NCBI GenBank assembly: GCA_041746105.1
Contig: JBGTHP010000003.1
Location: 78,163-142,162, forward strand
Reading direction: 5' to 3'
DNA from: Acidimicrobiia bacterium
Lineage (GTDB): Bacteria; Actinomycetota; Acidimicrobiia; Spongiisociales; ZC4RG35
DNA length: 64,000 bases
Shown here: positions 14,977 to 50,396 of the stretch, one piece after another
How the letters are laid out: every line of letters begins with the position of its first letter
Position numbering within the stretch: the stretch's first letter is position 1
The notes under the pieces: model-generated
Database searches by the model: none
Told to the model about the DNA's origin: nothing
What the model saw: the letters and a program-made list of their open reading frames with translations, nothing else
Made by a program: the position numbers and the translations under genes

Positions 14977-17900
14977 TCAAAGCAGGGCTGCGGCCTCGAC
15001 CCGGCAGACGCCAACCGGTCGCAATGCGGCCTCAGGGCCTTCATCGAACAAGATTGCCCAGTGCCTCGTTTCGTCGCTAACGACTTGTGCATGAAAGTTG
15101 CGGAACTCTATCGGGATTTCAGGCCGTGGTCCGCGAGGCTCCAGACGGCCGAAAGCCTCTATCAGTTCCATGCTCTCGCCCGAGCCTCGATCCATGATCT
15201 GGTTGATAACTGCGTCGATCTGGCCCTGAGGCACAACCTGCATTTCGTCACCGAGTACGAGATAAAAGCCTCGGTCCGATATGAGAGGAGCGATCGGCCG
15301 GTCCTGGGAGATGTCCTCGGCCACCGATTGGGCCATAACCCTCATCTCATTGCGTCGGTCGTCGGTATTCGAGGCCGAAGTGAGATAACGAGCCTCAACC
15401 CACGCGTCTCCGTTCGGGGTGGCGATTTCAATCCATAATGTCCCGTTCATCATTACCGAGTTTCCAGTGCCAGAGATACCGGTCGTGCCGGGCTCGAGGG
15501 TGTGGATCGCGCCATAGTGATGGTCCGGTCCGGACAAAGCGGGCAACCTGTCGTGGGGTCCGACCAAAACAACCGCCCAGGTCGTCTTCCGCTCGGAGGG
15601 CAGCGCTACTGGACGGATTGCCATCAGAAACGGACGTCTTAGCGTCAGCAACAACGTGACTAGAGAGACCAGGACGAACAGAATCAGCGGAGTCCTGACA
15701 GCCCATGTCGCGGCAAGAATCTCGGAGCCGATGAGGCCGAAGAATGAGATGCCGAAGAAGACCCGTTCCTCATCGCCGATCGATCCCGACCCGCCCGATC
15801 CGCCTTGGTCGACCGATGAACCAATGTCGAGGATTCTGACCGATACCGTCTCGCCGTCGATGACGACCTCGATCACGATCAACCCCGCCCCGACTGCTCC
15901 GTGCTCGTCGGTGACGTATAGCCGGATCGTGTCTTTGCCTTGAAAGCCATCCTCAGGGACGTAGACGATCGAACCATCTTCGATGGTGGCGGTCCCGTGA
16001 CCGGGTTGGGTTATCCGGATAGTGAAGCTGTCGCCCTCCATGTCGACGATCTCTGGAATCGGGATTTCGATCCAGTCGCCGGAGGACACGGTCGTGGAGT
16101 CGGATCCCGCCTCGATCCTCGGTGCATCATTCACCGGGGCGACGCTGAATGTCACTGTTGCGGTTGCGCTTCCACCGCGACCGTCGCTGATTCGGTAGGT
16201 GGCGCTGTCTGTGCCATTCCAGTCCGGGTCGGGTACGAACCAGAGGCCACCGGCCGTGTCGATGGTCCCATTCGATGGCAGGGTCAGCCATATCAGTGTG
16301 AGTGGATCCCCGTCCAAGTCGAAGTCGTTGGCCAGAGGCGCAAAGGCAACTTTTTGGTCTTCCAACCCTGAAACCTGGTCGTCAATGGCGCGTGGTGGCC
16401 TGTTGATCGGTGGCACCGGTGCCACCTGGGGGCCCGCCAAGATGGTCACGTTGATCGATGCGGTCGATCGGAGACCTCCGCTGTCGGTGACGGTCACAGT
16501 GAATCCGATGGTCATACCCGCATGAGCGCCGAGGCCCGACGCCACCGTCAGGCGACCGGTTGCGTCGATCTGGAACAGGCCCGTCCCGGAAAGCGAGAAG
16601 GTGATGGGGTTTTGGTCGGGGTCGCCGGCTGCGATCACACCCAGCAACTGTCCGATCTGGGCGGCGGAGGCGATGGTGAACGCCTGTCCGGTCACGACCG
16701 GCGGAGAGTTGACCGCGGAGATCGTGACGGTGACAGGGGCAGAAGCGCTGGAGCCTGACGAATCGGTGACTGTGGCCGTAGCTCGCAAGACCTCACCTCG
16801 GTTGACTTGTCCGACAAGGGTGACGGTGCCGGTTCCGGCGTTGATGGATAGGCGCGGGTCTCCGCTGAGGCCAAACGTCACCGGACCATCGGGATCTGAT
16901 GCCGAAACAGTTCCCAGCACCGTCCCACTGGTTGTCGTTTCCGGGACCGTGACTGTGAATGGCTGAATCACCGGAGGGTTGTTGGTGGGAACGACAATGG
17001 CAGCGACCACGTTCATGGAAGCGGTGGCGGTGTCGCTGAGCGAACCGTCGGTGATGGTGTACGTGAAGGTGTCCGGCCCCGCGAATCCGGGATTGGGTGT
17101 ATACGTGACCGTGGTGCCGTTGGTCGTCACACCGCCATTGGCTCCCTGGGTCACCGACTGAATGGTCAGCGGGTCGCCGTTGGGGTCAGAGTCGTTGGAT
17201 AAAACGGCAATCGTTCTGGCGAGGCCTTGACCCGTCGATGCATTGTCGTCGACTGCAACGGGGGCAGAGTTGCCCGATGCCGCAACCACAGCCAGTGAAA
17301 ACTCAGAAGTCGCCCCAAAGGTGCCCGCTCCCAGGTCCATAGTGGCAGTTGCGGTGATGGTGTCGCCGGGGTTGCCTGACATGATCGCGACCAGCCCCGA
17401 GCCGGCGGTTGCCGTCACGCCAGACAGGAACGAACCGCCTTCTCCGTGTCCGCTCGGGTCTGCGGCGGCCGAAGAAAAGAACTCAACCCGGTAGTTTCCG
17501 GGCGGAACGTCGAGATCAAAGGTCGCCGTCATCGTCCCGCCCCAGGCAAATGCCGAGGTGATGGCAGGGAAGTTGAGCAGGTCATTGGCGCCGGAGTCGG
17601 CGTCACCGGGGTCATTGGTGTTGACTCCGTTGATGCCGAGGTCGATGCCAAGGCCTCCGTTCGAGTAGATCGAGTTACCGAGGATCGAGTTGCCCGATGC
17701 CGTCGTTGCTTCGAGATGGATACCGTCGCCGATATTGAAGGCGATCACGTTCCGATCGCTCGGTGACAGGCCGCCGATTCGAGTGCCAGACACCAGGTCG
17801 TGGATCCGGATTCCGGGTCCTCCGTTTGGCATTGCCGTGACCCCGTCGGGAGCGACACCGATCGAGTTGCCAACAACGACGGTGTTGTGGCTGGCCAGGC

Positions 17901-37459: not shown

Positions 37460-37569
37460 GCGGTATCAGGGGGGTTCCAATGTGATCTGGTTTGGGGCCT
37501 ACCCGGAAACACCCGGGAAAGTGCGGCCGGATGACGGCCGGACCATCGAGCATCCAGAAGGGGGATCTC

Positions 37570-39594
37570 ATGGCTACACAGAAGAAGCCGCCTGCGGCAA
37601 AGTCCATCAAGAGGCGAGCGAGCCGGAAAAAGGATCAGGCTCATGTAATCGACCTCAACCCTGACGAGCGGGCGATCACCCTTCGGCAGGCTGCATACCT
37701 CGCCGACATCACCCGAGTCGAGGGCGAATTGCTCGTGGGAAAAAGGCTGGGCGACCTAGGAGAACTCCTTGAGTGGCGCATCGACCGTTTCTCGTTGTTT
37801 TATCGCAAGGTCTGCGGCCGAGTGGTCAAGACCGACGCTGCCACCGGGATCGTGCACGGGGTTCCCGGTGCCACCGTCCACGTGATGGACACCGACTGTT
37901 CTTTCCTTGGTTACTTCCCGGTGGAACACCCGAACTGGTGGTGGCTGTGGTTGATCAATTGCAAGGAAGAAGAAATCGCGACCACCGTTACCGACGAGTG
38001 CGGGAACTTCTGCGTGTGGATCCCGCGCTGGGACATCGATCGGCTGTTGCGCTGGCGTAAGGAGAGAATCTGTCTGCCCGAGGTCTATCGACCGAATCTG
38101 GGAGATCTGGTCGCGGTGCTGGACCGGCCGCCATTTCCTCAGCCGCCAGAACCGCCCTTTGATCGCGAACACCTTGTGCGCGCGGCCGAGGTCATGGGCA
38201 GTGGCATCGCAGGGCGGGTCGAGTTATTGGCCGGTGACCGAGCCTTTGGCTCCGTCGACGCGATTGCGCCGCTGCTGGAACTGCCGGCGTTTGGTGCCGG
38301 AGAGTTCCCGCCGCCTTTGACCCCGGAGGCAGTGGAGCGTCTAGACGTTCTCCGGTACGAGAAGATTCCTCAGCCGTACGATTCGTTGGCGCTTGGCCCG
38401 TTCTTCCGCTGTCACGACATCTTTGTGCCGGAGTGGACGACGATCTTCGACATCCCGGACATCAACTTCAAGGTGACCCAGGATGTCGACGAGGACGACG
38501 ACGAAGAGACCATCTACGACGAAGGTATCTTCGACGTCCGCTGGAACGCCGGTGACATTCCGAACGTGGTTCTGGAGGCATGGCCGGGGGCGAGGGTCTC
38601 TCACATATGCGACGGACCCGACATCCCTTGTGAAACGGTGCCAAGTATTGAAACCGTGGGCTTGATGCCGCTCCAGCCGTCACACCACGATGCGGACGGG
38701 TATTCGACCAGGGTCAATCGGCCGCGACCCAGCGGGTTGAGCACCGGGCCACAGGCTCCAGGAGAGAGCGCACAGGCGCCGTACGCGGGAACGCTTCAGC
38801 TTCACGGCTGCCATCACATCGCCGGAAAGTCGTTCTACCGATTGGTCTACCGCCATCGGCCAACGCTCACGGGAACGCTGACGTCAGAGGTGCCGTTCAC
38901 CGCGCTCTCGTGGTGGGCGCCCCGGATCGGGACCGGTCCGGTTCATGTCGTGCCGGACGCCGATGGCTGGTATCCGATCCTCAATGCGCCGGACATGGTG
39001 TTTCCGCATTGGCTCTTGAACTGGCCGACCACGAGCTTTCCGCACGGTCAGTATGAAGTGCGGCTGCAAGTGGCGAACGCAGCCAAAGCTGCGATCGTGT
39101 CGAGTGCGCCCATCGCATTCGTGGTCGACAACCGGAGTCCCAACGCCGGTTTCACCCAGTTGAGGTGGCGGGTGGGCGGTTCCCCTACGTGGGAGACGCT
39201 TCCGGCCGTGTGCCCCGTCATCGACAGACCCACCGGCAGCAAGATCGAGATCGAAGCGAGTTGGTATGCGAACGCCGTCCACTTCCGCAACGCCTTGTTG
39301 ACGGCCGGCGGTTGTGGCAGCTCGTCGCCGGTGAGGCTGGATGGCCCGCCACCGGCGTCGCCGTCCGATTTCGATCATTGGCACACCGGGGACACCGACA
39401 ATTCGATCGTCAGGGTTGGGATTTTCGAGATTCCGGCCGGTGCTCTGGCCGGGTGTTACTCGTTGGCCATCGACGCTCATACCAGAGCCTTCAACCCGGC
39501 CGGCGACGGCGGAGGACCGGGGACCAATTGGCTCGAGAACTATGCATATTCACACCTCCACCCGAGTGTTTCGGTGTCGGTGGTCGACGTCTGA
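37570..39594 (+). CDS. Large Cys/Pro/Trp-rich hypothetical protein (N-terminal transthyretin/carboxypeptidase-regulatory-like segment)
   Basis: Long ORF with AAGGGGG RBS and its own terminator; 'VCGRV.K....VPGATVHV.DTD' and 'TTVTDECGNFCV'. Confidence 0.8.
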   Translation: MATQKKPPAAKSIKRRASRKKDQAHVIDLNPDERAITLRQAAYLADITRVEGELLVGKRLGDLGELLEWRIDRFSLFYRKVCGRVVKTDAATGIVHGVPGATVHVMDTDCSFLGYFPVEHPNWWWLWLINCKEEEIATTVTDECGNFCVWIPRWDIDRLLRWRKERICLPEVYRPNLGDLVAVLDRPPFPQPPEPPFDREHLVRAAEVMGSGIAGRVELLAGDRAFGSVDAIAPLLELPAFGAGEFPPPLTPEAVERLDVLRYEKIPQPYDSLALGPFFRCHDIFVPEWTTIFDIPDINFKVTQDVDEDDDEETIYDEGIFDVRWNAGDIPNVVLEAWPGARVSHICDGPDIPCETVPSIETVGLMPLQPSHHDADGYSTRVNRPRPSGLSTGPQAPGESAQAPYAGTLQLHGCHHIAGKSFYRLVYRHRPTLTGTLTSEVPFTALSWWAPRIGTGPVHVVPDADGWYPILNAPDMVFPHWLLNWPTTSFPHGQYEVRLQVANAAKAAIVSSAPIAFVVDNRSPNAGFTQLRWRVGGSPTWETLPAVCPVIDRPTGSKIEIEASWYANAVHFRNALLTAGGCGSSSPVRLDGPPPASPSDFDHWHTGDTDNSIVRVGIFEIPAGALAGCYSLAIDAHTRAFNPAGDGGGPGTNWLENYAYSHLHPSVSVSVVDV

Positions 39595-39662: not shown

Positions 39663-40400
39663 TCACCCCCGCCGGCGATGGCTGAAGCGATCGGCGGCGG
39701 CGGTCACATGTTGGGTGATCTCTTCCTTCCGCTGCGCTGGAAAACGGTACGACGGGCCGTGAACCGATATGGCGCCGATCACGGTGTCATCGGAAAAAAC
39801 GGGAGCAGCCATCGAAGTGAGCCCTTCTGCGAACTCTTCGAACGCCCAGTGGTATCCGACCGATCGAGTCCGTTCCAGTCGCTCTCTGATCAAATCCGGC
39901 TCGACGACCGAGTTGGTTGTGTAGCGAGCCAGATCCATCTCGAGATAGGCGTTGATCTTCTCGTCGGGCCAATGCGCCATGATCGCAACACCGGCAGAAG
40001 CGATATGCATGGGCGCAAGATTGCCGGTGTAGTCCTTGACCTGGACCGCATTGGCTGCTTCCTCCTGGACGGCATGCTGGACATGGTTACCGACCTGAAT
40101 CGCGAAGCCTGCGGCCTCGGCAACGTGGGCCGAGAGTTCGATCAGGTGGGGGCGAACCGTAACGATCAGCGCAGCAGTCGAATCGTCAGAACGGGCAAGC
40201 TCGTCGACACCGCGACCGATCGTGTATGACCCCCACTGGTCCTTGCGGACGGCATCGAGGCGTTCGAGGGTTGCCAGAAGCCTGACAACGGTGGACTTGG
40301 CCAGGCCCGTGCTGTCTGCGACGTTGCTCAGGGTCGCCGGACCAAGCGCGACATGGCGCAGGACCTCAAAGGCCCTTTCGATCGAGCGTACCGTTTCCAT
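39663..40400 (-). CDS. IclR family transcriptional regulator
   Basis: 'VRSIERAFEVL...GLAKSTVVRLLATL', 'PMHIASAG', 'EEFAEGLTSMAAPV'. Confidence 0.92.
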   Translation of the reverse strand: METVRSIERAFEVLRHVALGPATLSNVADSTGLAKSTVVRLLATLERLDAVRKDQWGSYTIGRGVDELARSDDSTAALIVTVRPHLIELSAHVAEAAGFAIQVGNHVQHAVQEEAANAVQVKDYTGNLAPMHIASAGVAIMAHWPDEKINAYLEMDLARYTTNSVVEPDLIRERLERTRSVGYHWAFEEFAEGLTSMAAPVFSDDTVIGAISVHGPSYRFPAQRKEEITQHVTAAADRFSHRRRG

Positions 40401-40453
40401 GGTCTGCAGCGCCTCGGTCTGACTATGCGAGAGAGTGGTCCTCTCGACCCGGC

Positions 40454-42502
40454 TCAAGTTTCGGCTTGAGCTGCCGTTCCTTCGTCCATCGCCTGAAGAC
40501 GACGCAACTCGTCCAGCGGGATGTGACAGGACATACGATGGTTGTCCTCTACATAAACGATTGGCGGCTCGGTCACGTCGCACACGCCTTCGATGAAACG
40601 GTGACAGCGGGTGTGGAATACACAACCGGACGGCGGGTTGGCGGGACTTGGAATCTCGCCATGGAGTCTGATACGAACCGCGGTGGATCCGTCGACCGAG
40701 GGCACGGCCGACAGCAGCGCTTCGGTATAGGGGTGGTGAGGGCCGTTGAATATCTGGTCGGTCGTCCCGACTTCCATAAAACGCCCGAGGTACATCACGG
40801 CGATGCGATCCGCCAGGTAGCGGACAACCCCGAGATCGTGGCTGATGAACAGGTAGCTGGTCTTCTCCTGGGTTTGGAGATCCGCGAGGAGGTTGAGAAT
40901 CGCCGCCTGGACCGACACGTCGAGTGCACTGGTTGGCTCATCACAAACAACTACCCGCGGGTCACCGGCAAAAGCGCGAGCGATCGCAACCCGCTGTTTG
41001 AGCCCGCCGGATAGCTGGCGTGGACGCATGTCGAGATGGCGGGGGGTCAGTCGAAGGGCAGCAGCGAGCGTCTCCACCTTCTCGTCGGCGGCCTTCCCCG
41101 AAAGGCCGGTGAGCTTGGTCACTGTCCGCTTCAGGATTCTCCGCACGGTCCACATCTTGTTGAGAGCCGAATCCGGATTCTGAAAAACGATCTGCATGGC
41201 GCCCATCTCCGCAGCAGACCGTGCCGAAGAGAGTCCGGCGAGGGCTTCGTCGTCGAGGCTTATGGTGCTGCCCTCGTCCGGCGCGTGAATACCCAGGATG
41301 GCCTTGGCGAGGGTGCTCTTGCCTGACCCGGACTCGCCCACCAGACCCAGCGTCTCGCCGTTCTCCAGCCGCATGTCGATGCCAACAAGGGCGGGAACCT
41401 CGTGACGTTGCTGCTTGAAAGTTTTTGAGACTTGATGGAGTTTGATGACGATGCGTCCATCCAGTGTCCTGTCGGAGTCGTCGGCGGGCGGCTCCGGAAT
41501 TTCGTCGAGGCGATCGACGTGGTGACAGCGAGTGAAGTGCCCGTCTCTGACATCGACCACCGGCGGCTCTTCGGTCCGGCACAGGTCGTCGGCGATGACA
41601 CAGCGGTCCACGAACACGCAGGTCGGGAGGGGTGTCCCGATCTGGGGTAGCGTTCCCGGAATGCTGAACAGCGCCCGCTCGGTCTTCCGCACCCCATGGC
41701 GTGGCAGGGAACGGAGAAGCCCGACGGTGTAGGGATGTTGCGGGTCTTCGAAGACCTGCACCGCGTTGCCTTCTTCGACGATCTTGCCCGCGTACATCAC
41801 ACCGACTCGGTCGCACATGGTCCGGATGACGCCGAGGTTGTGGGCGATCAGGAGAACGGCCGAGCGATGATCATTGCGAAGCGCCCTGATCAGGTCCAGA
41901 ACTTCGGCTTCCACCGTCGCGTCGAGACCGGTCGTTGGTTCATCGAGGATGAGCAACTCCGGATCTGAGGCCAAGGCCATCGCGATGACAACTCTCTGTT
42001 GCATTCCGCCGGACAACTGATGGGGGTAACGGTCCATGACCCGGTCGGGGTCGGCGATCCGCACCTCGTCGAGTGCCTTGCGGGCGAGTTGGCGGGCCTT
42101 TTCTTTGTCGTGGCCGAGCACGGTGAAGCACTCCACCACCTGGCGGCCGATCTTGAGCGTCGGGTTCAGTGCCCCGCTTGGGTCCTGGTAGACCATGGAG
42201 GCGTGTTTCGTTCGAAGGGTGCGTATGTCGGAGGTGGACATCTTGGTGACGTCCTCTCCACCGACGTTTATCTGGCCGCCGGTGATGACGCCGTTGGATG
42301 GGAGATAACGGACGGCGGCATAGGCGGTGGTGCTCTTCCCGCATCCGGACTCGCCCACCAATCCATACGCCTCTCCCGGAGCGACCGAGAAGTCGACACC
42401 CCGAAGCACTGCACGGGGGATTCCGCGTACGTTGTATGCCAGATGGAGGTCCTTGACCTCGAGCGCCGGCTGGATCGGTTCGAAGCTGGGTTGTGCTGTC
42501 AT
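40454..42502 (-). CDS. Fused double ATP-binding subunit (DppD+DppF type) of a peptide-family ABC importer
   Basis: Two Walker A (GESGCGKST, GESGSGKST), two LSGG signatures, two C-terminal Cys-rich domains. Confidence 0.93.
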   Translation of the reverse strand: MTAQPSFEPIQPALEVKDLHLAYNVRGIPRAVLRGVDFSVAPGEAYGLVGESGCGKSTTAYAAVRYLPSNGVITGGQINVGGEDVTKMSTSDIRTLRTKHASMVYQDPSGALNPTLKIGRQVVECFTVLGHDKEKARQLARKALDEVRIADPDRVMDRYPHQLSGGMQQRVVIAMALASDPELLILDEPTTGLDATVEAEVLDLIRALRNDHRSAVLLIAHNLGVIRTMCDRVGVMYAGKIVEEGNAVQVFEDPQHPYTVGLLRSLPRHGVRKTERALFSIPGTLPQIGTPLPTCVFVDRCVIADDLCRTEEPPVVDVRDGHFTRCHHVDRLDEIPEPPADDSDRTLDGRIVIKLHQVSKTFKQQRHEVPALVGIDMRLENGETLGLVGESGSGKSTLAKAILGIHAPDEGSTISLDDEALAGLSSARSAAEMGAMQIVFQNPDSALNKMWTVRRILKRTVTKLTGLSGKAADEKVETLAAALRLTPRHLDMRPRQLSGGLKQRVAIARAFAGDPRVVVCDEPTSALDVSVQAAILNLLADLQTQEKTSYLFISHDLGVVRYLADRIAVMYLGRFMEVGTTDQIFNGPHHPYTEALLSAVPSVDGSTAVRIRLHGEIPSPANPPSGCVFHTRCHRFIEGVCDVTEPPIVYVEDNHRMSCHIPLDELRRLQAMDEGTAAQAET

Positions 42503-43395
42503 GAGGAGACCACCGATTCGATCGAGTCTGCGATGAGATTGGCCGCGATGACCAGGCTGGCAATGGCGAGAGCGGGGAACAACGTCGGCCACCATTGTCC
42601 GGCTTGGATGAGGCCGTAGTTGTCGGCGATGGCCAGACCCCAGTCCGGAGCGGGAGGCTGGATACCGGCCCCCAGGAAGGAGAGGGTTGCCACGGTGAAG
42701 ACCGCATACGCGATACGGACGGTGAGCTCGACGATGATGACGCCGGTGATGTTGGGCAATATCTCTCTGAACATGATGAAGGTGGCGCCTTCGCCGCGCA
42801 GCCTCGCCGACTCGACATAGTCGAGTCGACTCTCGGTGATAACCGCGGTTCGAATCGTTCTGGTCACCACCGGTGTGAAAAGCACGGCGATGGTTCCAAT
42901 CACAACCGGCCTCGAGTTCCCCACCGCCACGACCACGAGAAGAGCCAGCAGGACGGCCGGCAACGACAGGATGGCTTCGATGAAACGGCCGATGATCTCG
43001 TCGACGGCACCGCGGAAGTAGCCCGTGACCAGCCCGAGAACGGTGCCGGTGATGATCGCCAGAACTGCCGCAAGCGGTGCAAGCACCAGGACGTCTCGAG
43101 CGCCTGCCATGACCCGAGATAAAACGTCACGCCCAAGCACATCAGTCCCAAACCAGTGAGCGGCGTTGGGTCGCTGGCTCGAAACGTCGAAGTCACTCAG
43201 GGGGTGATAAGGCGTGATGGCAGAACCAAAGACGGCGCAGACCACCCAGAAGAGCAGGATCACTGAACCGATGATGAAGCTGGGCCGTCGCAGCAGCAAC
43301 CTGAGTCTTTCACGGCGAGCCTGCTTTTTCTCCGAGCGCATATCGATCACTTCAGGTTGAGCCGCTCCACTTTCCGGAGGCGTTTCGATTGTCAT
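42499..43395 (-). CDS. ABC permease (DppC type)
   Basis: 'HWFGTD.LGRDVLSRV', 'YVESARLRG', 'LSFLG.G..PP.PDWG'. Confidence 0.93.
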   Translation of the reverse strand: MTIETPPESGAAQPEVIDMRSEKKQARRERLRLLLRRPSFIIGSVILLFWVVCAVFGSAITPYHPLSDFDVSSQRPNAAHWFGTDVLGRDVLSRVMAGARDVLVLAPLAAVLAIITGTVLGLVTGYFRGAVDEIIGRFIEAILSLPAVLLALLVVVAVGNSRPVVIGTIAVLFTPVVTRTIRTAVITESRLDYVESARLRGEGATFIMFREILPNITGVIIVELTVRIAYAVFTVATLSFLGAGIQPPAPDWGLAIADNYGLIQAGQWWPTLFPALAIASLVIAANLIADSIESVVSS

Positions 43396-44345
43396 GTACC
43401 GGCCCCCTGACGTGAGCGTGGGTTCATCCAGGAAACGGTCAGGTCGGCGAGCAACGTGAAGACCATGTAGACGAGGGCGATCAGGATCACTCCCGCCGTC
43501 AAAATGGGGTAATCCTTGTCTCCGGCGGCCACGAAGATGCGGCGTCCGAGGCCGGGATAGTTGAAAACAATTTCGAGAGCAACCAGACCTCCGAACAGAT
43601 AACCCACTGCCACCCCGATCACCGTCACAGTTTCCTGGAGCGCGTTGCGCAGGACATGACGCCGAACAACTTGGCGCGGAGCCAATCCCTTCATATAGGC
43701 GGTTCTGGTGTAGTCGCTGGCAAACGCCTTGATGGCGCCGTTACGAGTGATGCGGGCGATATAGCCGAAGTAGACAACGGCAAGTGCTATCCCCGGCAGC
43801 AGGAGGTGTTCGAGCTCGACCAAAAAACTGGAACCAGATGGGGCCAAGGCCAATGCAGGGAGCCAGCCCAATTCGACCCCGATCAGGTATTGGAGCACGG
43901 CCGCCGAGACGAATTCGGGGATGGAGGCACTTGCCAGACCCATGGTCACGACGGCGCGATCGGCAAAGGTGTCCTTTCGTCTGGCGGCGTATATGCCGGC
44001 GGCGATGCTGATCGGGATCGTGAGAATGAGTGCGAGGATGACGAGCTTGGCCGAACGCCACAGATCTGGGAAAAGGATCTCCCTCACAGGCTTGTTGAAG
44101 GTGAAAGAAGTGCCGAAGTCGAAGGTGGCGGTGTTCTTCAGAACGCGCCAGTATTGGGTGGCGAGAGGGTCGTTCGACCCGATCCGCGCGGCGATGATGT
44201 CGACTTGTTCTTGTTGTGCGAATGGTCCCGCAATCCGGCGGGCGGGATCCCCGGGAAGCACGTTGAGGATGAAGAACACCGCGGTGATTATCAAGATCAA
44301 CGTGATCACGGCGAGACCCAACCGGCGTGCGATAAACCTCCCCAT
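43392..44345 (-). CDS. ABC permease (DppB type)
   Basis: 'LPGDPA', 'DYTRTAYMKGL', 'HVLRNA', 'E.VFNYPGLG', 'DYP'. Confidence 0.93.
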   Translation of the reverse strand: MGRFIARRLGLAVITLILIITAVFFILNVLPGDPARRIAGPFAQQEQVDIIAARIGSNDPLATQYWRVLKNTATFDFGTSFTFNKPVREILFPDLWRSAKLVILALILTIPISIAAGIYAARRKDTFADRAVVTMGLASASIPEFVSAAVLQYLIGVELGWLPALALAPSGSSFLVELEHLLLPGIALAVVYFGYIARITRNGAIKAFASDYTRTAYMKGLAPRQVVRRHVLRNALQETVTVIGVAVGYLFGGLVALEIVFNYPGLGRRIFVAAGDKDYPILTAGVILIALVYMVFTLLADLTVSWMNPRSRQGAGT

Positions 44346-44392
44346 TATTGGGTTCCCTCCATTCGCATCTGTCTCCTTGGGTTGTGGTGTCG

Positions 44393-44430
44393 GTTGGCGG
44401 GAGCGCCCTGAGACGCCCCCGCCCTCCAAC
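44393..44430 (-). other. Intercistronic stem-loop after the SBP gene (mRNA stabiliser/attenuator)
   Basis: Minus strand GGCGGGGGCG-8nt-CGCTCCCGCC right after the SBP stop. Confidence 0.55.
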
Positions 44431-44432
44431 AA

Positions 44433-46133
44433 TCATCCAACCTTTGAGGCCTTGCCCAGGTACGGGTGGCCAAGTGCCGACACCTGGATTCCGGTGAAGT
44501 CCTTGCTGTGGGCCGACAAGTAGTTGTAGAAATACGCCAACCCGACCGGAACCTCGTCCGTGAGGAGACGCTGGATCTTGCCCAGTGCCGTGGTTTTGGC
44601 CGACACATCGGCGGCGGCCGAGTATTCATCGACCAGGCCGTCGAATTCGGAACTCGCATATTGCGACGAGTTCCATATGGCATTGCTGGTGAGAGCATTG
44701 TTGAAATAGACGTCGGGGGTAGGCCGATGCCCGTAGTCGACGATGCCCAACTCTGTCGCACCAGAGCACGGCGGACTTGCTGGTTCTCCCGGGCACCATG
44801 CATTTCCGTAGAAGGTGTCGAGGCTTTCACCGGCCAGGGTGAGATTGATCCCCGCTTCTGCCGCTCCGGCCTGAATCAGCTGTGCCAGCTGCGGGATCTC
44901 CTGGAAGTCCGCATGGTTGAGCGTCGCCGAGAATCCGTCGGGCAGCCCGGCGTCCGCCAGCAACTGCTTCGCCATCTCGATGTCGCGAGGGCGCTGTTCT
45001 TGGGAGGCGTCGAAGCCCTCAAAGAATGGTGCAACGACGTGATCGTTGGCGACCACTGCCTTGCCCTTGTAGAGCACCTCGACCATCTTGGGCCGGTCGA
45101 AGGTGTACGCCAGGGCCTGGCGGACGCGCTTGTCGGTGAACTGCCCCTGATCGACCCGCATCCAGATTTCGCGGTGGTTGGCGGTTGGCGTCTCGAGGAC
45201 AACGAAGTTGGAATCGTTGAGTAATGCATCGCCGCCGATCACTTGGAACTGGATCACACCGTCCACGGCGCCCGAGACGGCAGCGCTGATGTTGGTGGCC
45301 AGGTCGTCGAAGAACTGGAACTCCACGGTGTCGAGGCTGGGATTGCCGCCCCACCAGTCTGGGTTCTTCTCGTAGGTGGCACCAGTTGATGCGTCGAAGT
45401 CGACGAGTTTGAACGGACCGGTTCCGTTCTTCACCGCGTCGAGGGTGGTGCCGATCTCGTAGTTCACCGGTGTGATCGGCGTCTGCGCGTTGTAAAGCGA
45501 GAGAAGGGCGGGAAGGTTTCCGTTGGGCTTGTTCAGCTGAACGACGGCGACCGCCGGGTCGCTCGCATCGACTGCCCCTGCTGCCAGGAATCCGCCGGCC
45601 GTTAGGCCTCCGATGTTGCCTTCGGCGATGCGATCCATCGTGGCCGCCACATCGGCGGAGGTGAAGTCGCTGCCGTCGTGCCACTTGACCCCCTGGCGGA
45701 GGTTGAAGGTCCAGATGGTGGCGTCGTCGTTGGCCGACCAACTTTCGGCGAGGCCGGGGGCGAGCCCACCGTCGTCGGCGAGGGCGAGAAGGTACTCGAA
45801 TGACATCGCAATGAGGCCGTAGGTGCCGAGGTCCTGCATCAGAATCGGGTCGAGGGCGCTTGCCGGTGTCTGGGTGCCCATCCTGAACAAACCACCGGCC
45901 TGCGGGGTGCCGCCGCCCTGGGTGGTTGCGACCCCACCGGCAGTTGTGGTTGTGGCGGTGTCGCCGCCGCAGGCGGCGATGACGGCAGACATCGAGGTCA
46001 TTCCGAGACCGAGGATTGTTCCGCGGCGGATGAAATCGCGGCGGGAGATCTTGTTCGCTGCGTAGTGATCAATCAGATCGACTTCGAGTGGCGTAGAGTT
46101 CCGCCGAACTCGGTCGAGTAGGTTCCAGTTCAT
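44433..46133 (-). CDS. Family 5 substrate-binding protein, Tat-exported lipoprotein
   Basis: 'SRRDFIRR' twin-arginine motif, lipobox 'IAAC', 'LAESW......WTFNLRQGVKWHDG'; start at 46133 or 46139. Confidence 0.93.
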   Translation of the reverse strand: MNWNLLDRVRRNSTPLEVDLIDHYAANKISRRDFIRRGTILGLGMTSMSAVIAACGGDTATTTTAGGVATTQGGGTPQAGGLFRMGTQTPASALDPILMQDLGTYGLIAMSFEYLLALADDGGLAPGLAESWSANDDATIWTFNLRQGVKWHDGSDFTSADVAATMDRIAEGNIGGLTAGGFLAAGAVDASDPAVAVVQLNKPNGNLPALLSLYNAQTPITPVNYEIGTTLDAVKNGTGPFKLVDFDASTGATYEKNPDWWGGNPSLDTVEFQFFDDLATNISAAVSGAVDGVIQFQVIGGDALLNDSNFVVLETPTANHREIWMRVDQGQFTDKRVRQALAYTFDRPKMVEVLYKGKAVVANDHVVAPFFEGFDASQEQRPRDIEMAKQLLADAGLPDGFSATLNHADFQEIPQLAQLIQAGAAEAGINLTLAGESLDTFYGNAWCPGEPASPPCSGATELGIVDYGHRPTPDVYFNNALTSNAIWNSSQYASSEFDGLVDEYSAAADVSAKTTALGKIQRLLTDEVPVGLAYFYNYLSAHSKDFTGIQVSALGHPYLGKASKVG

Positions 46134-46262
46134 GCTCACCTCTCCGTGGGTTCAGGCGCGAACACGTCGCGCCTCGGTCAGTTGAATCCTGGCACGGTTT
46201 CCCGGGGAATGCACCGAAGGCCGGTTTTGATGTCCGCCGATTGCCCGCGCCCTGACTCAACG

Positions 46263-46297
46263 ATTCCACCATACAGAACAGTTCCACCTCGTGGCAC
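46263..46297. promoter_or_regulatory. Putative IclR operator pair ATTCCACCATACAGAAC / GTTCCACCTCGTGGCAC
   Basis: Tandem imperfect 17-bp palindromes sharing TTCCACC in the divergent intergenic region. Confidence 0.4.
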
Positions 46298-46481
46298 GCG
46301 GAATCGGGTTTTTCTTCTTGAGGGTGTGCACGGCATCCGTCGCCCACGGACAGCCCTGAAACTGGTGCGATCGACTCAGACCCCTCCGGCGCGACGTTTA
46401 TACTCGCTGCCCCATGAGGGCCCCGTTCGAATGTGAATGTTCCCAGTCCGGCTTCGGTCTGGTCGGCGCCGGAGAAGACCG

Positions 46482-47576
46482 TTGACGGCCCTGGCGCGCA
46501 CTGCCCGTTTACGGGTCACTCCATATACGAGCAGGGTCGAGGCGGCCGGCGTGAAGGCATATTCGGTGTACAACCACATGTTATTGCCTGGCAGCTTTCG
46601 GGGTCTCGAGAATGATTACTGGCACCTACGGTCCTCCGTGCAGATCTGGGATGTCAGCTGTCAGCGCCAAATCGAGATCAGCGGGGTGGAAGCCGATCAA
46701 CTTGCTCAACTGCTCACAGTCAGGGATATCCGCAACGTTGCCGTCGGCCGGTGCGTTTACGCCCCGGTTGTGGACTTTGACGGTGGATTGATCAACGACC
46801 CCGTTGTTATACATGCCGGTCCCGACCGGTGGTGGTTCTCCCTCGCCGATTCCGACCTCGGACTTTGGGCCGAAGGCCTGGCGCGGGGTTATGGCATGGA
46901 GGTTCGGGTCGCCGAGTTGGATGTCTGGCCTCTTGCGATCCAAGGACCCAAATCAGAGGACGTGATGTCTCTCGTGTTTGGTGAGGCCGTCCGATCAATC
47001 CGGTTCTTCCAATTCGAGCGGCTCGAGTTCGAGGGTCGATCCATGATCGTGGCGCGTTCCGGTTGGTCGGCTCAAGGCGGTTTTGAGGTCTACGTGGACG
47101 ATGCCGACGTCGGCGTTGCGTTGTACGACGCCTTGATGGAAGCGGGGGGAGCTTTCGACATCGGACCGGGCGGACCCAATCTCATCGAGCGGATCGAGGC
47201 AGGATTGTTGTCCTACGGCGGCGACATGACCCGAGACAACAACCCGCTCGAATGCGGTCTGGATCAATATTGCTCCTTGTCCTCCGACATGGAGGCGATC
47301 GGACTGTCGGCGCTGAGGGCTCACTCAGAGCGGCCATTGGCTCGTCGGATCCGAGGGTTGACCATCGAGGGACCGCCACTTGAACCTCTGGTTGCGAGAT
47401 GGCCGCTCCGCGGTGATCAGGGTCCGATCGGTGCGGTGACTTCAGCTGCATGGTCGCCTCGCCTGAAGAAGAACATCGCTCTGGCGATGGTGGACACGGG
47501 AGCACCGGATCTGGTCGAGGTCGAAACCCCGAGCGGGTCCAGAAGCGCAGAAGTGGGTGCGCCCCGGTTCCCTTGA
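46482..47576 (+). CDS. dmdA: GcvT-family THF-dependent demethylase, DmdA (DMSP demethylase)-like
   Basis: Blocks 'VEAAGVK.Y.VYNHMLLP', 'WDVSCQRQ', 'VFGEAVR.IRFF', 'ARSGWS.QGGFE', 'PN.IER.E.GLLSYG.DMTR.N' match DmdA as I recall it; TTG start after GGAG. Confidence 0.75.
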   Translation: MTALARTARLRVTPYTSRVEAAGVKAYSVYNHMLLPGSFRGLENDYWHLRSSVQIWDVSCQRQIEISGVEADQLAQLLTVRDIRNVAVGRCVYAPVVDFDGGLINDPVVIHAGPDRWWFSLADSDLGLWAEGLARGYGMEVRVAELDVWPLAIQGPKSEDVMSLVFGEAVRSIRFFQFERLEFEGRSMIVARSGWSAQGGFEVYVDDADVGVALYDALMEAGGAFDIGPGGPNLIERIEAGLLSYGGDMTRDNNPLECGLDQYCSLSSDMEAIGLSALRAHSERPLARRIRGLTIEGPPLEPLVARWPLRGDQGPIGAVTSAAWSPRLKKNIALAMVDTGAPDLVEVETPSGSRSAEVGAPRFP

Positions 47577-47935: not shown

Positions 47936-49510
47936 TTACCCCGCGCGTTGGTGGGTCTCGGCCACGAGCGGAAGCCGGAGTCGGAATACGCTCCAGCCGT
48001 GGTGGTAGTCATAGGCGAGGGAGCCGCCCATGGCCCGCGCCAGTGAGCTCGAAACATAAAGTCCCAGCCCAAACCCGTCCGGGCTGGAACGCTGTCCGAC
48101 CTGGAAGTAGGGCGAGAACAGACGGTGGCGTTGCGCCTTTGGAATTCCGGCACCGTCATCTCTGACGTCGAGACAACCCCACCCCTCCTGAGCGTAGATG
48201 TGGACTTCGATTCTGGGACCGCCGTACTTTCTGGCATTGGAGACGAGGTTGCGGACGATCTGCCTTGTTCGCGTCCTGTCGCCGGCAACGGTGGTGGCAT
48301 CGCCGATCACCTCGATCGATCTGGTTCGTCGGCTCATTCCCCTGACCACCTGGTCGGCGTCCGTCATCAGGTTGAGGTGGTCGTTCCCTATCCGAAGTTC
48401 ACCCATCTCGTGCCGGGTGGCAACCAGCAGGTCTTCGACGATGTCGGCCGCCTCGCGTGCTTGTTCTGTGAGGATCGCCAGATACTCGTCGACGTCGGCC
48501 GAGATCCCGCCGATCTCCGGTTCCAACTGGTCGGCGAAGCCGAGCACAGCAGTCAAGGGAGTCCTTATCTCGTGGCTGACGGTTGCGATGAAGTTGGTCT
48601 TCCAGCGCGACTCTTCTGTTGCTCGCCGACTCGCATGGACCGGCTCGGTGATGTCTGACACAGCAAGTGAAATCACGGGGAGGCGGTCGAGTTCGTCGGA
48701 CCTCGATGCCACCACGCTGAGGACTCGCTCGCCGTCGATTACCGACGCGTGCACCTCGCTCTCGTCGAGGGCAATCTCCACTATCGAAACGATGGTCGGA
48801 AACGACTCGAGGACTTGCCGATAGTCCTGTCCCATCGAGATATCCAACGTGGACCAGCCGGCGCTCGAGAGGACCGTTCCCCCTGCGTCGATGACCATCA
48901 GAGAGATCTTGCTCATATTCAGCGTCGCCGTGAGGGAGGCGCGAGCCAGATCGCGTTCGATCCTCAAACTTGCCGCCGTCTGACGCAGCAGCCACAGGAC
49001 ACCGATGATGATGACGATGAATACCGACACGATCACCAGGACAACCACCAGGGCAATTGAGACGCGGCTTGCCTCGGCCCGTTGGATCGGCAGCGACAGG
49101 TTGAGGGCGAGTCCGATGGTCAGGGCGGTGGCGGTGTGGGCGACAAATCCCTTCGTGACTCTGGGCAAGACGACCCAGGCCACGCAAAATGTTCCGAGCA
49201 CGGCTGCGGGAACCGACAGGAGAGTGGCGGCAACAGCCGCGGTCAGCGCCGCCGCATAGAGGTCGATCGTGAGCGAGGTCCGTGGACTCATCTTGATGAG
49301 GCCAAGGATGCGGCATCCGGTGGTGACAACTTCCACGACTGCTGCCGCGATCGCCAGCCAGAGCCAGTCCGGTCTGAGGCCGAATCGGAAGGCGGCACCG
49401 ACGCCGACAAGCCATCCGACGAGCCTCATCCAATCATGGGCAACGTGGAATCTGTCGCTTTCGGCGAAATCGGGAAGAGACAGAGAAATCTTCGGTTGGT
49501 CGGGTTCCAA
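47936..49510 (-). CDS. Multi-TM sensor histidine kinase with PAS-like linker, orphan in this window
   Basis: 'SHEIRTPLT', 'NLVSNARKY', 'DDGAGI', 'GFGLGL'; 5-6 N-terminal TMs. Confidence 0.9.
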   Translation of the reverse strand: MEPDQPKISLSLPDFAESDRFHVAHDWMRLVGWLVGVGAAFRFGLRPDWLWLAIAAAVVEVVTTGCRILGLIKMSPRTSLTIDLYAAALTAAVAATLLSVPAAVLGTFCVAWVVLPRVTKGFVAHTATALTIGLALNLSLPIQRAEASRVSIALVVVLVIVSVFIVIIIGVLWLLRQTAASLRIERDLARASLTATLNMSKISLMVIDAGGTVLSSAGWSTLDISMGQDYRQVLESFPTIVSIVEIALDESEVHASVIDGERVLSVVASRSDELDRLPVISLAVSDITEPVHASRRATEESRWKTNFIATVSHEIRTPLTAVLGFADQLEPEIGGISADVDEYLAILTEQAREAADIVEDLLVATRHEMGELRIGNDHLNLMTDADQVVRGMSRRTRSIEVIGDATTVAGDRTRTRQIVRNLVSNARKYGGPRIEVHIYAQEGWGCLDVRDDGAGIPKAQRHRLFSPYFQVGQRSSPDGFGLGLYVSSSLARAMGGSLAYDYHHGWSVFRLRLPLVAETHQRAG

Positions 49511-49607: not shown

Positions 49608-50396
49608 TTACGAGAATTTGGGCGGTCGCTTGGCCTTGGCGGCGGCGACCCCTTCTGCTGCGTCCGGCAGGCCCCAACCCATGAATTCGAGGGCGAGCCC
49701 TGCATCAAAAGCCGGGTACGCAGAGCGCAACCAGTGGTTGAGGCTGTGTTTGGTCCACCGAATCGCACTCTGGCTGCCCGAAGCCAGCGAACGGGCAACG
49801 CTCAGAGCCTCGGCAAGGAGTTCGGTGTCGTCGACGGTCTTCGAAACGAGGCCAATGCGCTCGGCTTCTGCTCCGTCCATCGGGTCGTTGGTCAGGAGGT
49901 GATACTTGGCCTTGGCCATTCCAACCAGCAGCGGCCAGATCAACACGGCGTGATCTCCGGCCGCGACTCCGATGCGGACGTGGCCGTCGATGATTTTTGC
50001 CGACCGGCCGGCAATTGAGATGTCCGCCAGGAGTGCGGCCGCCAGTCCAGCACCAACCGCGACTCCATTGATCGCACTCACTATCGGTTTCGAGCATTCG
50101 ACGATATTGCGGACGAGATCGCGGGCTTCGCTCAGGGTTCGTTCTCTGGCGTGCGGCTCGAGGATGATCTCCTCGAGCATCGAGAAGTCGCCACCCGCGC
50201 TGAAGAAGGGGCCGTCTGCTCGAAGAAGTGCGACGCGGACTCGATCGTCTCGTTCGACATCGAGCCAGATGTCGGCGAGTTGGCGGTGCCCTTCGGCGTC
50301 GACCGTGTTGGCCGGAGGGTTGGACAAGACAATCTCCAGGACGCCATCTGAGTGCAGATCACATCGAAGTTTGTCGTAGCTCGCCCAGTCGAACAC
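49608..50396 (-). CDS. Enoyl-CoA hydratase/isomerase (crotonase) family protein
   Basis: 'FSAGGD', 'KPIVSAINGVAVGAG', 'DGHVRIGVAAGDH'. Confidence 0.92.
   Translation of the reverse strand: MFDWASYDKLRCDLHSDGVLEIVLSNPPANTVDAEGHRQLADIWLDVERDDRVRVALLRADGPFFSAGGDFSMLEEIILEPHARERTLSEARDLVRNIVECSKPIVSAINGVAVGAGLAAALLADISIAGRSAKIIDGHVRIGVAAGDHAVLIWPLLVGMAKAKYHLLTNDPMDGAEAERIGLVSKTVDDTELLAEALSVARSLASGSQSAIRWTKHSLNHWLRSAYPAFDAGLALEFMGWGLPDAAEGVAAAKAKRPPKFS

Follow-up and report, generated by a model that had tools for sequence, protein, structure and literature searches.

An importer of the oligopeptide-permease (Opp) type for a betaine is reportedly present in Sinorhizobium meliloti, i.e., Prb, which Alloing et al. 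are said to have described in 2006 as an Opp-like ATP-binding cassette (ABC) importer of proline betaine. The importers published for dimethylsulfoniopropionate (DMSP) belong to other families, namely the BCCT carriers and ABC systems of the OpuAC type such as DmpXWV, and further DMSP transporters must exist according to the same report (PMC10030565, in part; sources marked in this way are cited from excerpts). Here, we describe a locus at positions 39,663 to 47,576 of a stretch of 64,000 nucleotides (the window; contig JBGTHP010000003.1, positions 78,163 to 142,162, assembly GCA_041746105.1) from an Acidimicrobiia bacterium, in which a gene for an enzyme of the DMSP demethylase family, DmdA, lies head-to-head with an operon for a family-5 ABC importer and an IclR-family regulator (Table 1). 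The importer fits no known DMSP importer family: its substrate-binding protein (SBP) is of the SBP_bac_5 family, and neither BCCT nor OpuAC (PF04069). With a probability of roughly 0.55, we read the locus as a predicted IclR-controlled module for the uptake and tetrahydrofolate (THF)-dependent demethylation of DMSP, and the pair of importer and enzyme probably takes up and demethylates either DMSP or a close analogue. The DmdA family and its presence in Acidimicrobiia are already known; the tie between a family-5 importer class and DmdA has no precedent in the literature searched. What is observed directly is which genes are present, the families to which they belong and the recurrence of importer and enzyme as neighbours.

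The enzyme was likened to DmdA in the original prediction, a note made from the DNA alone, and this resemblance is borne out by profile and structure matches. The protein scores 474.4 bits against NF009133, the equivalog profile for dimethylsulfoniopropionate demethylase (cut-off 410), over profile positions 5-364 of 369, and it is the only one of the 12 GcvT-fold matches in its genome above that cut-off. Its top PDB match (E 1.8e-103, 349.8 bits) is 3tfh, the DmdA of Pelagibacter ubique (PMC7487153, in part). The residues W171, E178 and Y180 contact DMSP and folate, with W171 named as key for DMSP (PMC7487153, in part); the window enzyme carries the W, E and Y of ...GWS.QGG.EVY, and its segment ARSGWSAQGGFEVY aligns with ARSGWSKQGGYEVY of 3tfh. 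It also retains 91 of the 103 columns that are invariant in six SAR11- and Ruegeria-type rows, compared to 57-75 in outer Acidimicrobiia paralogues. The domains GCV_T and GCV_T_C, which stand alone without an FAD domain, would also suit the T protein of glycine cleavage, but such an identity is effectively excluded: the scores against the GcvT profiles TIGR00528 (123.5 bits, cut-off 235.85) and NF001567 (158.5 versus 300) are far too low, and a branch with 100% support separates the window enzyme from its paralogues. As had been noted from the DNA, gcvH and gcvP are not nearby, either; GCV_H is matched on contigs C35 and C17 and GDC-P on C12, neither of them on the window contig, C3, and another GcvT-fold gene is found near gcvH on C35. 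On these comparisons, the enzyme is a member of the DmdA family and not a glycine cleavage protein.

The position of the enzyme within this family was examined with trees built from the DmdA-like open reading frames (ORFs) of the fetched loci and rooted on paralogues (FastTree, 109 rows; IQ-TREE with a mixture model, 57 rows picked by hand from the 109 to represent every clade). Both methods recover, with 100% support, a core DmdA clade that includes the window enzyme and comprises SAR11-type, Ruegeria-type, gammaproteobacterial and Acidimicrobiia groups as well as a group linked to genes for a flavin mononucleotide (FMN)-dependent dehydrogenase, a thiamine pyrophosphate (TPP) enzyme and a transthyretin-like protein. 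Of the SAR11-type rows, L056 matches 3tfh over its full length with 577.7 bits. In the Ruegeria-type row (L059), dmdA is followed by a gene for an AcuI-like Zn-dehydrogenase, and a dmdA-acuI arrangement has been described for roseobacters (PMC5395565, in part). Acidimicrobiia paralogues scoring 300-390 bits fall outside the core clade (eight outer rows; L017 of G039 and L021 of G034 are flagged unpublished, and the same pattern is seen in the other six, so that no conclusion depends on those two). The original prediction had also called the lineage unexpected, which is not supported, as dmdA of Acidimicrobiia in metagenomes (PMC13280387, in part) and of Actinobacteria (Mizuno 2015, as cited by PMC6309047, in part) is in print. 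Other members of the window subclade have roseobacter-like neighbours, i.e., PpoB2, DUF1326, an AcuI-like Zn-dependent alcohol dehydrogenase and an alpha/beta hydrolase. PpoB2 (copper chaperone family) and DUF1326 precede DmdA in the Ruegeria locus L059, which comes from a metagenome-assembled genome (MAG), as well as in Acidimicrobiia (L049 and L055, from Ilumatobacteraceae-type lake MAGs, and L153 at 15065-16540), with the AcuI-like Zn-dehydrogenase and the alpha/beta hydrolase near this block, which appears common to different phyla.

The association of importer and demethylase that had been proposed for the window is supported by recurrent gene neighbourhoods that appear to have arisen independently. 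In a genome of the same genus (G001), genes for an SBP, two permeases and an ATPase that are 48-69% identical to those of the window (SBP 51%, ATPase 69%) lie directly ahead of a DmdA gene of the same orientation, whose product is 53% identical to the window enzyme (510 bits) and belongs to another subclade of the core. In G367, an ABC orthologue and a gene for a 58%-identical DmdA lie divergently, 5 kb apart. Across the 401 Acidimicrobiia genomes sampled, the DmdA cut-off is passed in 6 and an SBP orthologue with 46% identity or more is found in 22, the orthologues in 21 further genomes being 46-63% identical; both occur in three genomes, as neighbouring genes in two. Kin genomes are not independent, and no statistic on co-occurrence is therefore given. 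Proteobacterial DmdA loci have related family-5 ABC systems nearby as well. Such a system, with a fused ATPase and an SBP 28-32% identical to that of the window, lies within 10 kb in 12 of the 80 DmdA loci taken from genome_contigs, and a weaker one (SBP 23-24% identical) in two more. These fractions are not natural frequencies, since the pattern scans used peptides of the window enzyme and favour some subclades. In L060, L065, L072 and L074, the ABC genes are co-linear with DmdA and continue without a break into its gene or operon. In four of five such proteobacterial genomes (8-16 matches each), no SBP matches that of the window better than the one adjacent to DmdA, and in the fifth it ranks second of 13.

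The SBP itself has no close solved relative, its top PDB match being YliB with only 118.7 bits; within its genome, no paralogue exceeds 21% identity, and 120 homologues among the matches listed bear generic names only. It fails every peptide, nickel, glutathione and opine equivalog cut-off of NCBIfam by a wide margin (bits scored/cut-off: Opp5A_nikA 141/600, GsiB 116/594, DppA 84.5/1005, OppA 64.9/947, CntA 90/800). The neighbours of its orthologues were surveyed in 22 ABC loci. Besides the window and G001, these stem from 20 Acidimicrobiia genomes out of 48 further ones with a match, namely the 17 highest-scoring apart from G372, G143, G117 and G228, together with three of 40-43% identity. 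Methyl-onium or methyl-transfer genes are found within about 10 kb of the ABC genes in 14 of these loci: DmdA (window, L108, L153), MttB-family methyltransferases below the trimethylamine equivalog cut-off (L145, L146, L155, L157, L163), DAO+GcvT fusions (L145, L155, L157, L162), a Fer2_4+GcvT protein (L163), a choline-sulfatase equivalog with 741 bits (L161), other sulfatases (L153, L160), a butyrobetaine/TmpA-like dioxygenase (L148), a GMC oxidoreductase with a divergent IclR gene (L154), and a homocysteine S-methyltransferase with RACo (L164); the assignment of L155 comes from clustering with scanned proteins instead of a scan of its own. On a Mesorhizobium plasmid, the nearest plasmid homologue of the SBP (36%) follows genes for an MttB-family protein, a 2-oxoglutarate (2OG) oxygenase and a Rieske oxygenase, with a LysR regulator, and the closest genome paralogue of the window IclR protein (47% identity, C11) adjoins MttB-like and MTHFR genes. 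These neighbourhoods point to an importer of onium compounds rather than of peptides, and the broader wording of the original prediction, "DMSP or related methyl-sulfonium/amine", fits them.

The same genome (G000) contains methylamine-rich islands at about 14000-60000 of C11 (L168, L169) and 226000-246000 of C17 (L170), with three MttB-family genes and several DAO+GcvT fusions, besides an MTHFR-like gene, the IclR paralogue and the only OpuAC-type SBP. Furthermore, a gene of the enolase superfamily (MR_MLE) adjoins the ABC orthologue in at least five loci (Table 1). Its top PDB relatives are 4e4u and 4e5t (about 550 bits), uncharacterised MR/MLE proteins from structural genomics, followed by acid-sugar dehydratases; a function as proline or hydroxyproline betaine epimerase, enzymes that are named in PMC5144071, is not supported by these matches. 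"orf404", an ORF of 404 aa without a family that recurs beside the ABC genes, is an antisense shadow of the enolase-superfamily gene.

In the module that we propose, two transcripts would serve the use of a methyl-onium carboxylate, most likely DMSP. The family-5 SBP, a putative lipoprotein, would capture the compound outside the cell, and the two permeases together with the fused double ATPase would import it. The divergently encoded DmdA-family enzyme would then transfer one methyl group to THF and so yield 5-methyl-THF; with DMSP as the substrate, methylmercaptopropionate would be the second product. DmdB-, DmdC- and enoyl-CoA-hydratase-like genes are present on other contigs and could serve to process this product further: on C36, a ligase with 245 bits to DmdB (6IHK) adjoins an enoyl-CoA hydratase, an acyl-CoA dehydrogenase on C21 has 483 bits to DmdC (6IJC; both structure assignments are confirmed in PMC6850173), and an AcuI-like gene of the genome shares 52% identity with that of Ruegeria. 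These downstream genes permit the demethylation route; they do not prove it, because their families are broad. Both promoters would probably be governed by the IclR protein from the shared spacer. Substrate, regulation and direction of flux are what we infer here.

Several findings weigh against this module. Only 3 of the 6 DmdA-positive Acidimicrobiia genomes have an SBP orthologue, no such ABC system lies within reach of the closest DmdA relatives (L028-L055, 53-65% identical), and in 19 of the 22 loci the ABC orthologue does not adjoin DmdA. Eight of the 22 have no onium-related neighbour at all (L147, L149, L150, L151, L152, L156, L158, L159), and peptidases are encoded nearby in two of these, L159 and L150. 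The genome also holds one OpuAC-type SBP (C11), which could import DMSP. The neighbourhood might hence be coincidental, with the ABC system importing peptides or an unrelated solute under IclR control and DmdA being fed by another carrier, e.g., the OpuAC-type system on C11; family-5 systems do typically import peptide, nickel or opine, judging by NCBIfam names and PDB neighbours. Such a coincidence is unlikely, given three separate DmdA-ABC juxtapositions in Acidimicrobiia that differ in DmdA subclade and gene order, the recurrence of the link in Proteobacteria with the best-hit relation described above, and the distance of the SBP from all peptide, nickel and opine equivalogs. Moreover, none of the three other family-5 systems of the genome (C9, C26, C41) is near a GcvT or MttB match. 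A BCCT transporter was not found in the 98.5%-complete genome.

With regard to the substrate, the case for DMSP is weakened at the level of the enzyme, the pathway and the habitat. In the IQ-TREE phylogeny, the Acidimicrobiia subclade is not nested among the validated enzymes; it is the sister group (support 94) of a proteobacterial crown in which both validated types are found. In the FastTree phylogeny, it has a different position within the core. Bracketing therefore does not fix its substrate. The subclade has no assayed member, so that DMSP activity there is a prediction from sequence, and, as of 2018, gram-positive bacteria were not known to have a functional dmdA (PMC6309047). The NF009133 cut-off is passed by every core subclade, including the 44-row one with the FMN-TPP-transthyretin operon, which might have a different substrate or function, because some contigs have operon-linked and stand-alone copies side by side. 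The W, E and Y residues are present in this operon-linked subclade, too, and therefore do not tell members of the family apart. L082 (575-1609 and 3599-4621), L202 and L228 each have two DmdA-family genes within a few kb, one stand-alone and of the gammaproteobacterial-type clade, the other joined to the FMN-TPP-transthyretin cluster, which points to distinct roles inside the "DmdA" equivalog. A review describes DmdB- and DmdC-like enzymes as generic (PMC5395565, in part), and a methanethiol oxidase of the SBP56/MtoX type was not found in the genome. The runs that hold window DNA are labelled "hot springs metagenome" (two belong to a possible source study, and a third, with 0.41 of words, to a different study; runs with small shares, i.e., 0.20 marine, 0.15 and 0.10, were not used as habitat evidence), no RNA run is listed among them, and the titles of many relatives name lake or stream MAGs. 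DMSP is not known to be abundant in hot springs, lakes or streams, and the habitat labels weaken DMSP as the natural substrate.

A module of the same architecture and mechanism could instead act on another methyl-onium compound that is available in non-marine water, such as the sulfonium compounds S-methylmethionine, dimethylsulfoniohydroxybutyrate (DMSHB) and dimethylsulfonioacetate, or a quaternary ammonium betaine. We regard this as the most serious rival reading, possible if doubtful, and the weight that it receives is due mainly to the hot-spring labels and the lake and stream titles. It would also agree with the genes beside most ABC orthologues, which belong to quaternary-amine metabolism (MttB family, DAO-GcvT, choline sulfatase, butyrobetaine-dioxygenase-like) in Acidimicrobiia as well as on the Mesorhizobium plasmid, with the sister position of the window subclade, and with the paired DmdA paralogues, which argue against a functionally uniform family; Prb reportedly adds an Opp-like importer for proline betaine. 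However, the window enzyme is as near to the P. ubique DmdA as are proteobacterial subclades (353 bits for L072), and the invariant columns that it keeps include the Trp that has been called DMSP-specific. We know of no direct methyl transfer from a quaternary ammonium compound to THF by the DmdA fold, and the validated DmdAs are highly specific for DMSP (PMC5395565, in part). The original prediction of a DMSP uptake and demethylation locus is supported with respect to the DmdA family and the importer link, while DMSP itself is unproven, the subclade being sister to the validated types in the better tree.

The layout of the locus, an IclR-ATPase-permeases-SBP operon head-to-head with a GcvT-family gene, was correctly recognised beforehand, as confirmed by ORFs and Pfam domains. 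The importer operon consists of five genes on the minus strand, SBP first and IclR last, and encodes the complete domain set of a family-5 importer, i.e., SBP_bac_5, two BPD_transp_1 permeases, and ATPase halves with oligo_HPY tails that are fused. The ATPase is 66-75% identical to those of orthologous Acidimicrobiia operons; its ORF extends to 42595, the likely ATG at 42502 overlaps the stop of permease C, and 53 bp separate it from the IclR gene. The N-terminus of the SBP has a twin-arginine-like signal (SRRDFIRRG) and a lipobox-like IAAC, motifs that fit, as expected, a predicted anchored binding protein of Actinobacteria. The regulator has the domains PF09339 (HTH_IclR, 47.7 bits) and PF01614 (IclR_C, 91 bits) and passes no NCBIfam equivalog; the best of them, BhcR, reaches 135.8 bits against a cut-off of 350, and the protein is therefore a generic IclR only. 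GC content is even across the region. The genome comprises 3.25 Mb in 47 contigs, and the titles of the closest relatives of its proteins name Acidimicrobiales, Ilumatobacteraceae or Acidimicrobiia MAGs.

Table 1. Features of the importer-demethylase locus, its neighbours in the window, and enolase-superfamily genes beside orthologous importers.
Feature	Locus	Position (strand)	Remarks
ORF, 700 aa	window	37492-39594 (+)	Pro-, Ala-, Gly-rich
IclR-family regulator	window	39663..40400 (-)	last gene of importer operon; ORF to 40625, likely start 40400, 245 aa
Fused double ATPase, OppD/OppF-like halves in one ORF	window	40454..42502 (-)	ABC_tran x2 + oligo_HPY x2
Permease C, OppC/DppC-like	window	42499..43395 (-)	BPD_transp_1 + OppC_N
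Permease B, OppB/DppB-like	window	43392..44345 (-)	BPD_transp_1 + BPD_transp_1_N; ORF to 44432, likely start 44345
Family-5 SBP	window	44433..46139 (-)	SBP_bac_5, 239 bits
Divergent control region	window	46140..46436	297-bp spacer between SBP and DmdA-family genes
DmdA-family GCV_T + GCV_T_C protein, 379 aa	window	46437..47576 (+)	PF01571 + PF08669
Sensor histidine kinase	window	47936-49510 (-)	convergent to DmdA gene
Enoyl-CoA hydratase	window	49608-50396 (-)	NF005595 subfamily, 388.9 bits versus cut-off 292
Enolase-superfamily gene	L108	8419-9606 (+)	
Enolase-superfamily gene	L145	8221-9441 (+)	
Enolase-superfamily gene	L148	1-1062 (+)	
Enolase-superfamily gene	L157	3986-5311 (-)	
Enolase-superfamily gene	L162	1085-2227 (-)	

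An alternative start of the DmdA-family gene, TTG at 46482, fits the alignment of homologues better. The tandem imperfect palindromes that had been seen between the divergent genes are at chance level: the 342-bp spacer contains 7 (7-nt, imperfect), compared to 4.0 +/- 2.6 after shuffling, and 7 or more were reached in 89 of 500 shuffles, so that the palindromes are rejected as an operator signal. The spacer also contains a direct repeat, TTCCACC, with its copies 18 bp apart (46263, 46281), the second of which sits within the imperfect palindrome GTTCCAC-CTC-GTGGCAC; the repeat is a candidate operator. Terminator-like sites are at shuffle level, a scan of the spacer found no sigma-70-like promoter sites, and no riboswitch or other RNA in it matched Rfam at E <= 1. 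For phylogenetic footprinting of the spacer, no relative exceeded 57% identity in metagenome_contigs or 65% in genome_contigs.

Regarding the neighbouring genes, the 700-aa ORF adjoining the IclR gene, a putative gene, matches nothing in Pfam or NCBIfam, and relatives of it were absent from all fetched loci. On the other side, a kinase 42% identical to the sensor histidine kinase lies in L109 (3596-4252; G002, same genus), where it converges on a DmdA paralogue that does not belong to the core clade, and a 32%-identical one is found in L113 (7492-8292; G031); the position of the kinase may be conserved while its GcvT-fold occupant differs. The enoyl-CoA hydratase, 2 kb from DmdA, is encoded upstream of the kinase and on the same strand, and is dissimilar to the hydratase directly after DmdA in L028.

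A more general, tentative proposal is that the family-5 ABC subfamily and DmdA-family methyltransferases might together form an unrecognised, horizontally shuffled system for methyl-onium uptake and demethylation in Actinomycetota and Proteobacteria, which extends into lakes and hot springs and whose non-marine substrate is not DMSP. The 44-row subclade is preceded by genes for an FMN-dependent 2-hydroxyacid dehydrogenase (PF01070), a TPP enzyme and a transthyretin/HIUase-like protein, a tightly conserved four-gene cluster with DmdA that occurs in Pelagibacteraceae, Rhodobacterales, Comamonadaceae, Rubrivivax, Gammaproteobacteria and SAR324 (L060, L062, L063, L066, L069-L073, L076-L080 and L083-L107 among others in genome_contigs; 56 of the 80 metagenome loci L172-L251). 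Its TPP enzyme is 64-87% identical across classes, and LysR, Peptidase_S51, homocysteine S-methyltransferase and family-5 ABC genes often accompany it. The cluster may represent a pathway for a hydroxy-acid onium compound. If the general proposal is true, the operon of SBP5-ABC, FMN dehydrogenase, TPP enzyme, transthyretin-like protein and DmdA would encode an undescribed pathway for a hydroxy-acid sulfonium compound or betaine, e.g., one like DMSHB, and part of the "dmdA" counts in surveys would reflect a different activity. Estimates of the share of DMSP sulfur that is diverted from the climate-active gas dimethyl sulfide (DMS) widely draw on such counts. If the Opp-like system does carry DMSP, it would be the third class of DMSP importers after BCCT and OpuAC-type systems, and would provide a handle on DMSP use by Acidimicrobiia. 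If the substrate is another one, the NF009133 or "dmdA" label would over-call DMSP demethylation in lake, stream and hot-spring genomes as well as in the operon-linked proteobacterial subclade.

Compared to the DmdA proteins of P. ubique (3tfh) and Ruegeria pomeroyi, the window enzyme has the same two-domain GcvT fold of about 370 aa, the W/E/Y residues and membership in the core clade, whereas about half of its residues differ and it belongs to the Acidimicrobiia subclade. The neighbours differ as well, with an ABC importer and IclR in the window, dmdB and dmdC in the SAR11 type (L056) and acuI in the Ruegeria type (L059). The nearest precedent for the proposed role of the importer is Prb, reportedly an oligopeptide-permease-family ABC system that carries a quaternary ammonium compound and not peptides; Prb is not known to be linked to a DmdA-family enzyme. 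DmpXWV, the DMSP-specific system of R. pomeroyi and SAR11, is, like the window system, an ABC importer that depends on a binding protein, and DMSP is the substrate proposed for the latter as well, but DmpX is OpuAC-type (pfam04069; PMC10030565, in part) and the window system combines SBP_bac_5 with Opp-type permeases and a fused oligo_HPY ATPase, so that the families are not homologous. The description of the importer as an unexpected transporter class thus holds with respect to the published DMSP importers, which are of the BCCT and OpuAC types (PMC10030565, in part), and has to be qualified by Prb as an Opp-like betaine importer already in print. In the literature searched, there was no report tying dmdA to an Opp-like ABC system, or on dmdA with a transthyretin-like operon. 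The proteobacterial operons of SBP5, permeases, fused ATPase, FMN dehydrogenase, TPP enzyme, transthyretin-like protein and DmdA (L060, L072) share a related SBP and a related DmdA with the window. The window locus is without the three enzyme genes of these operons, the best matches elsewhere in its genome being 34% (FMN dehydrogenase) and 25% (TPP enzyme) identical, with no transthyretin-like match; and where the proteobacterial operons have a LysR regulator, the window has IclR.

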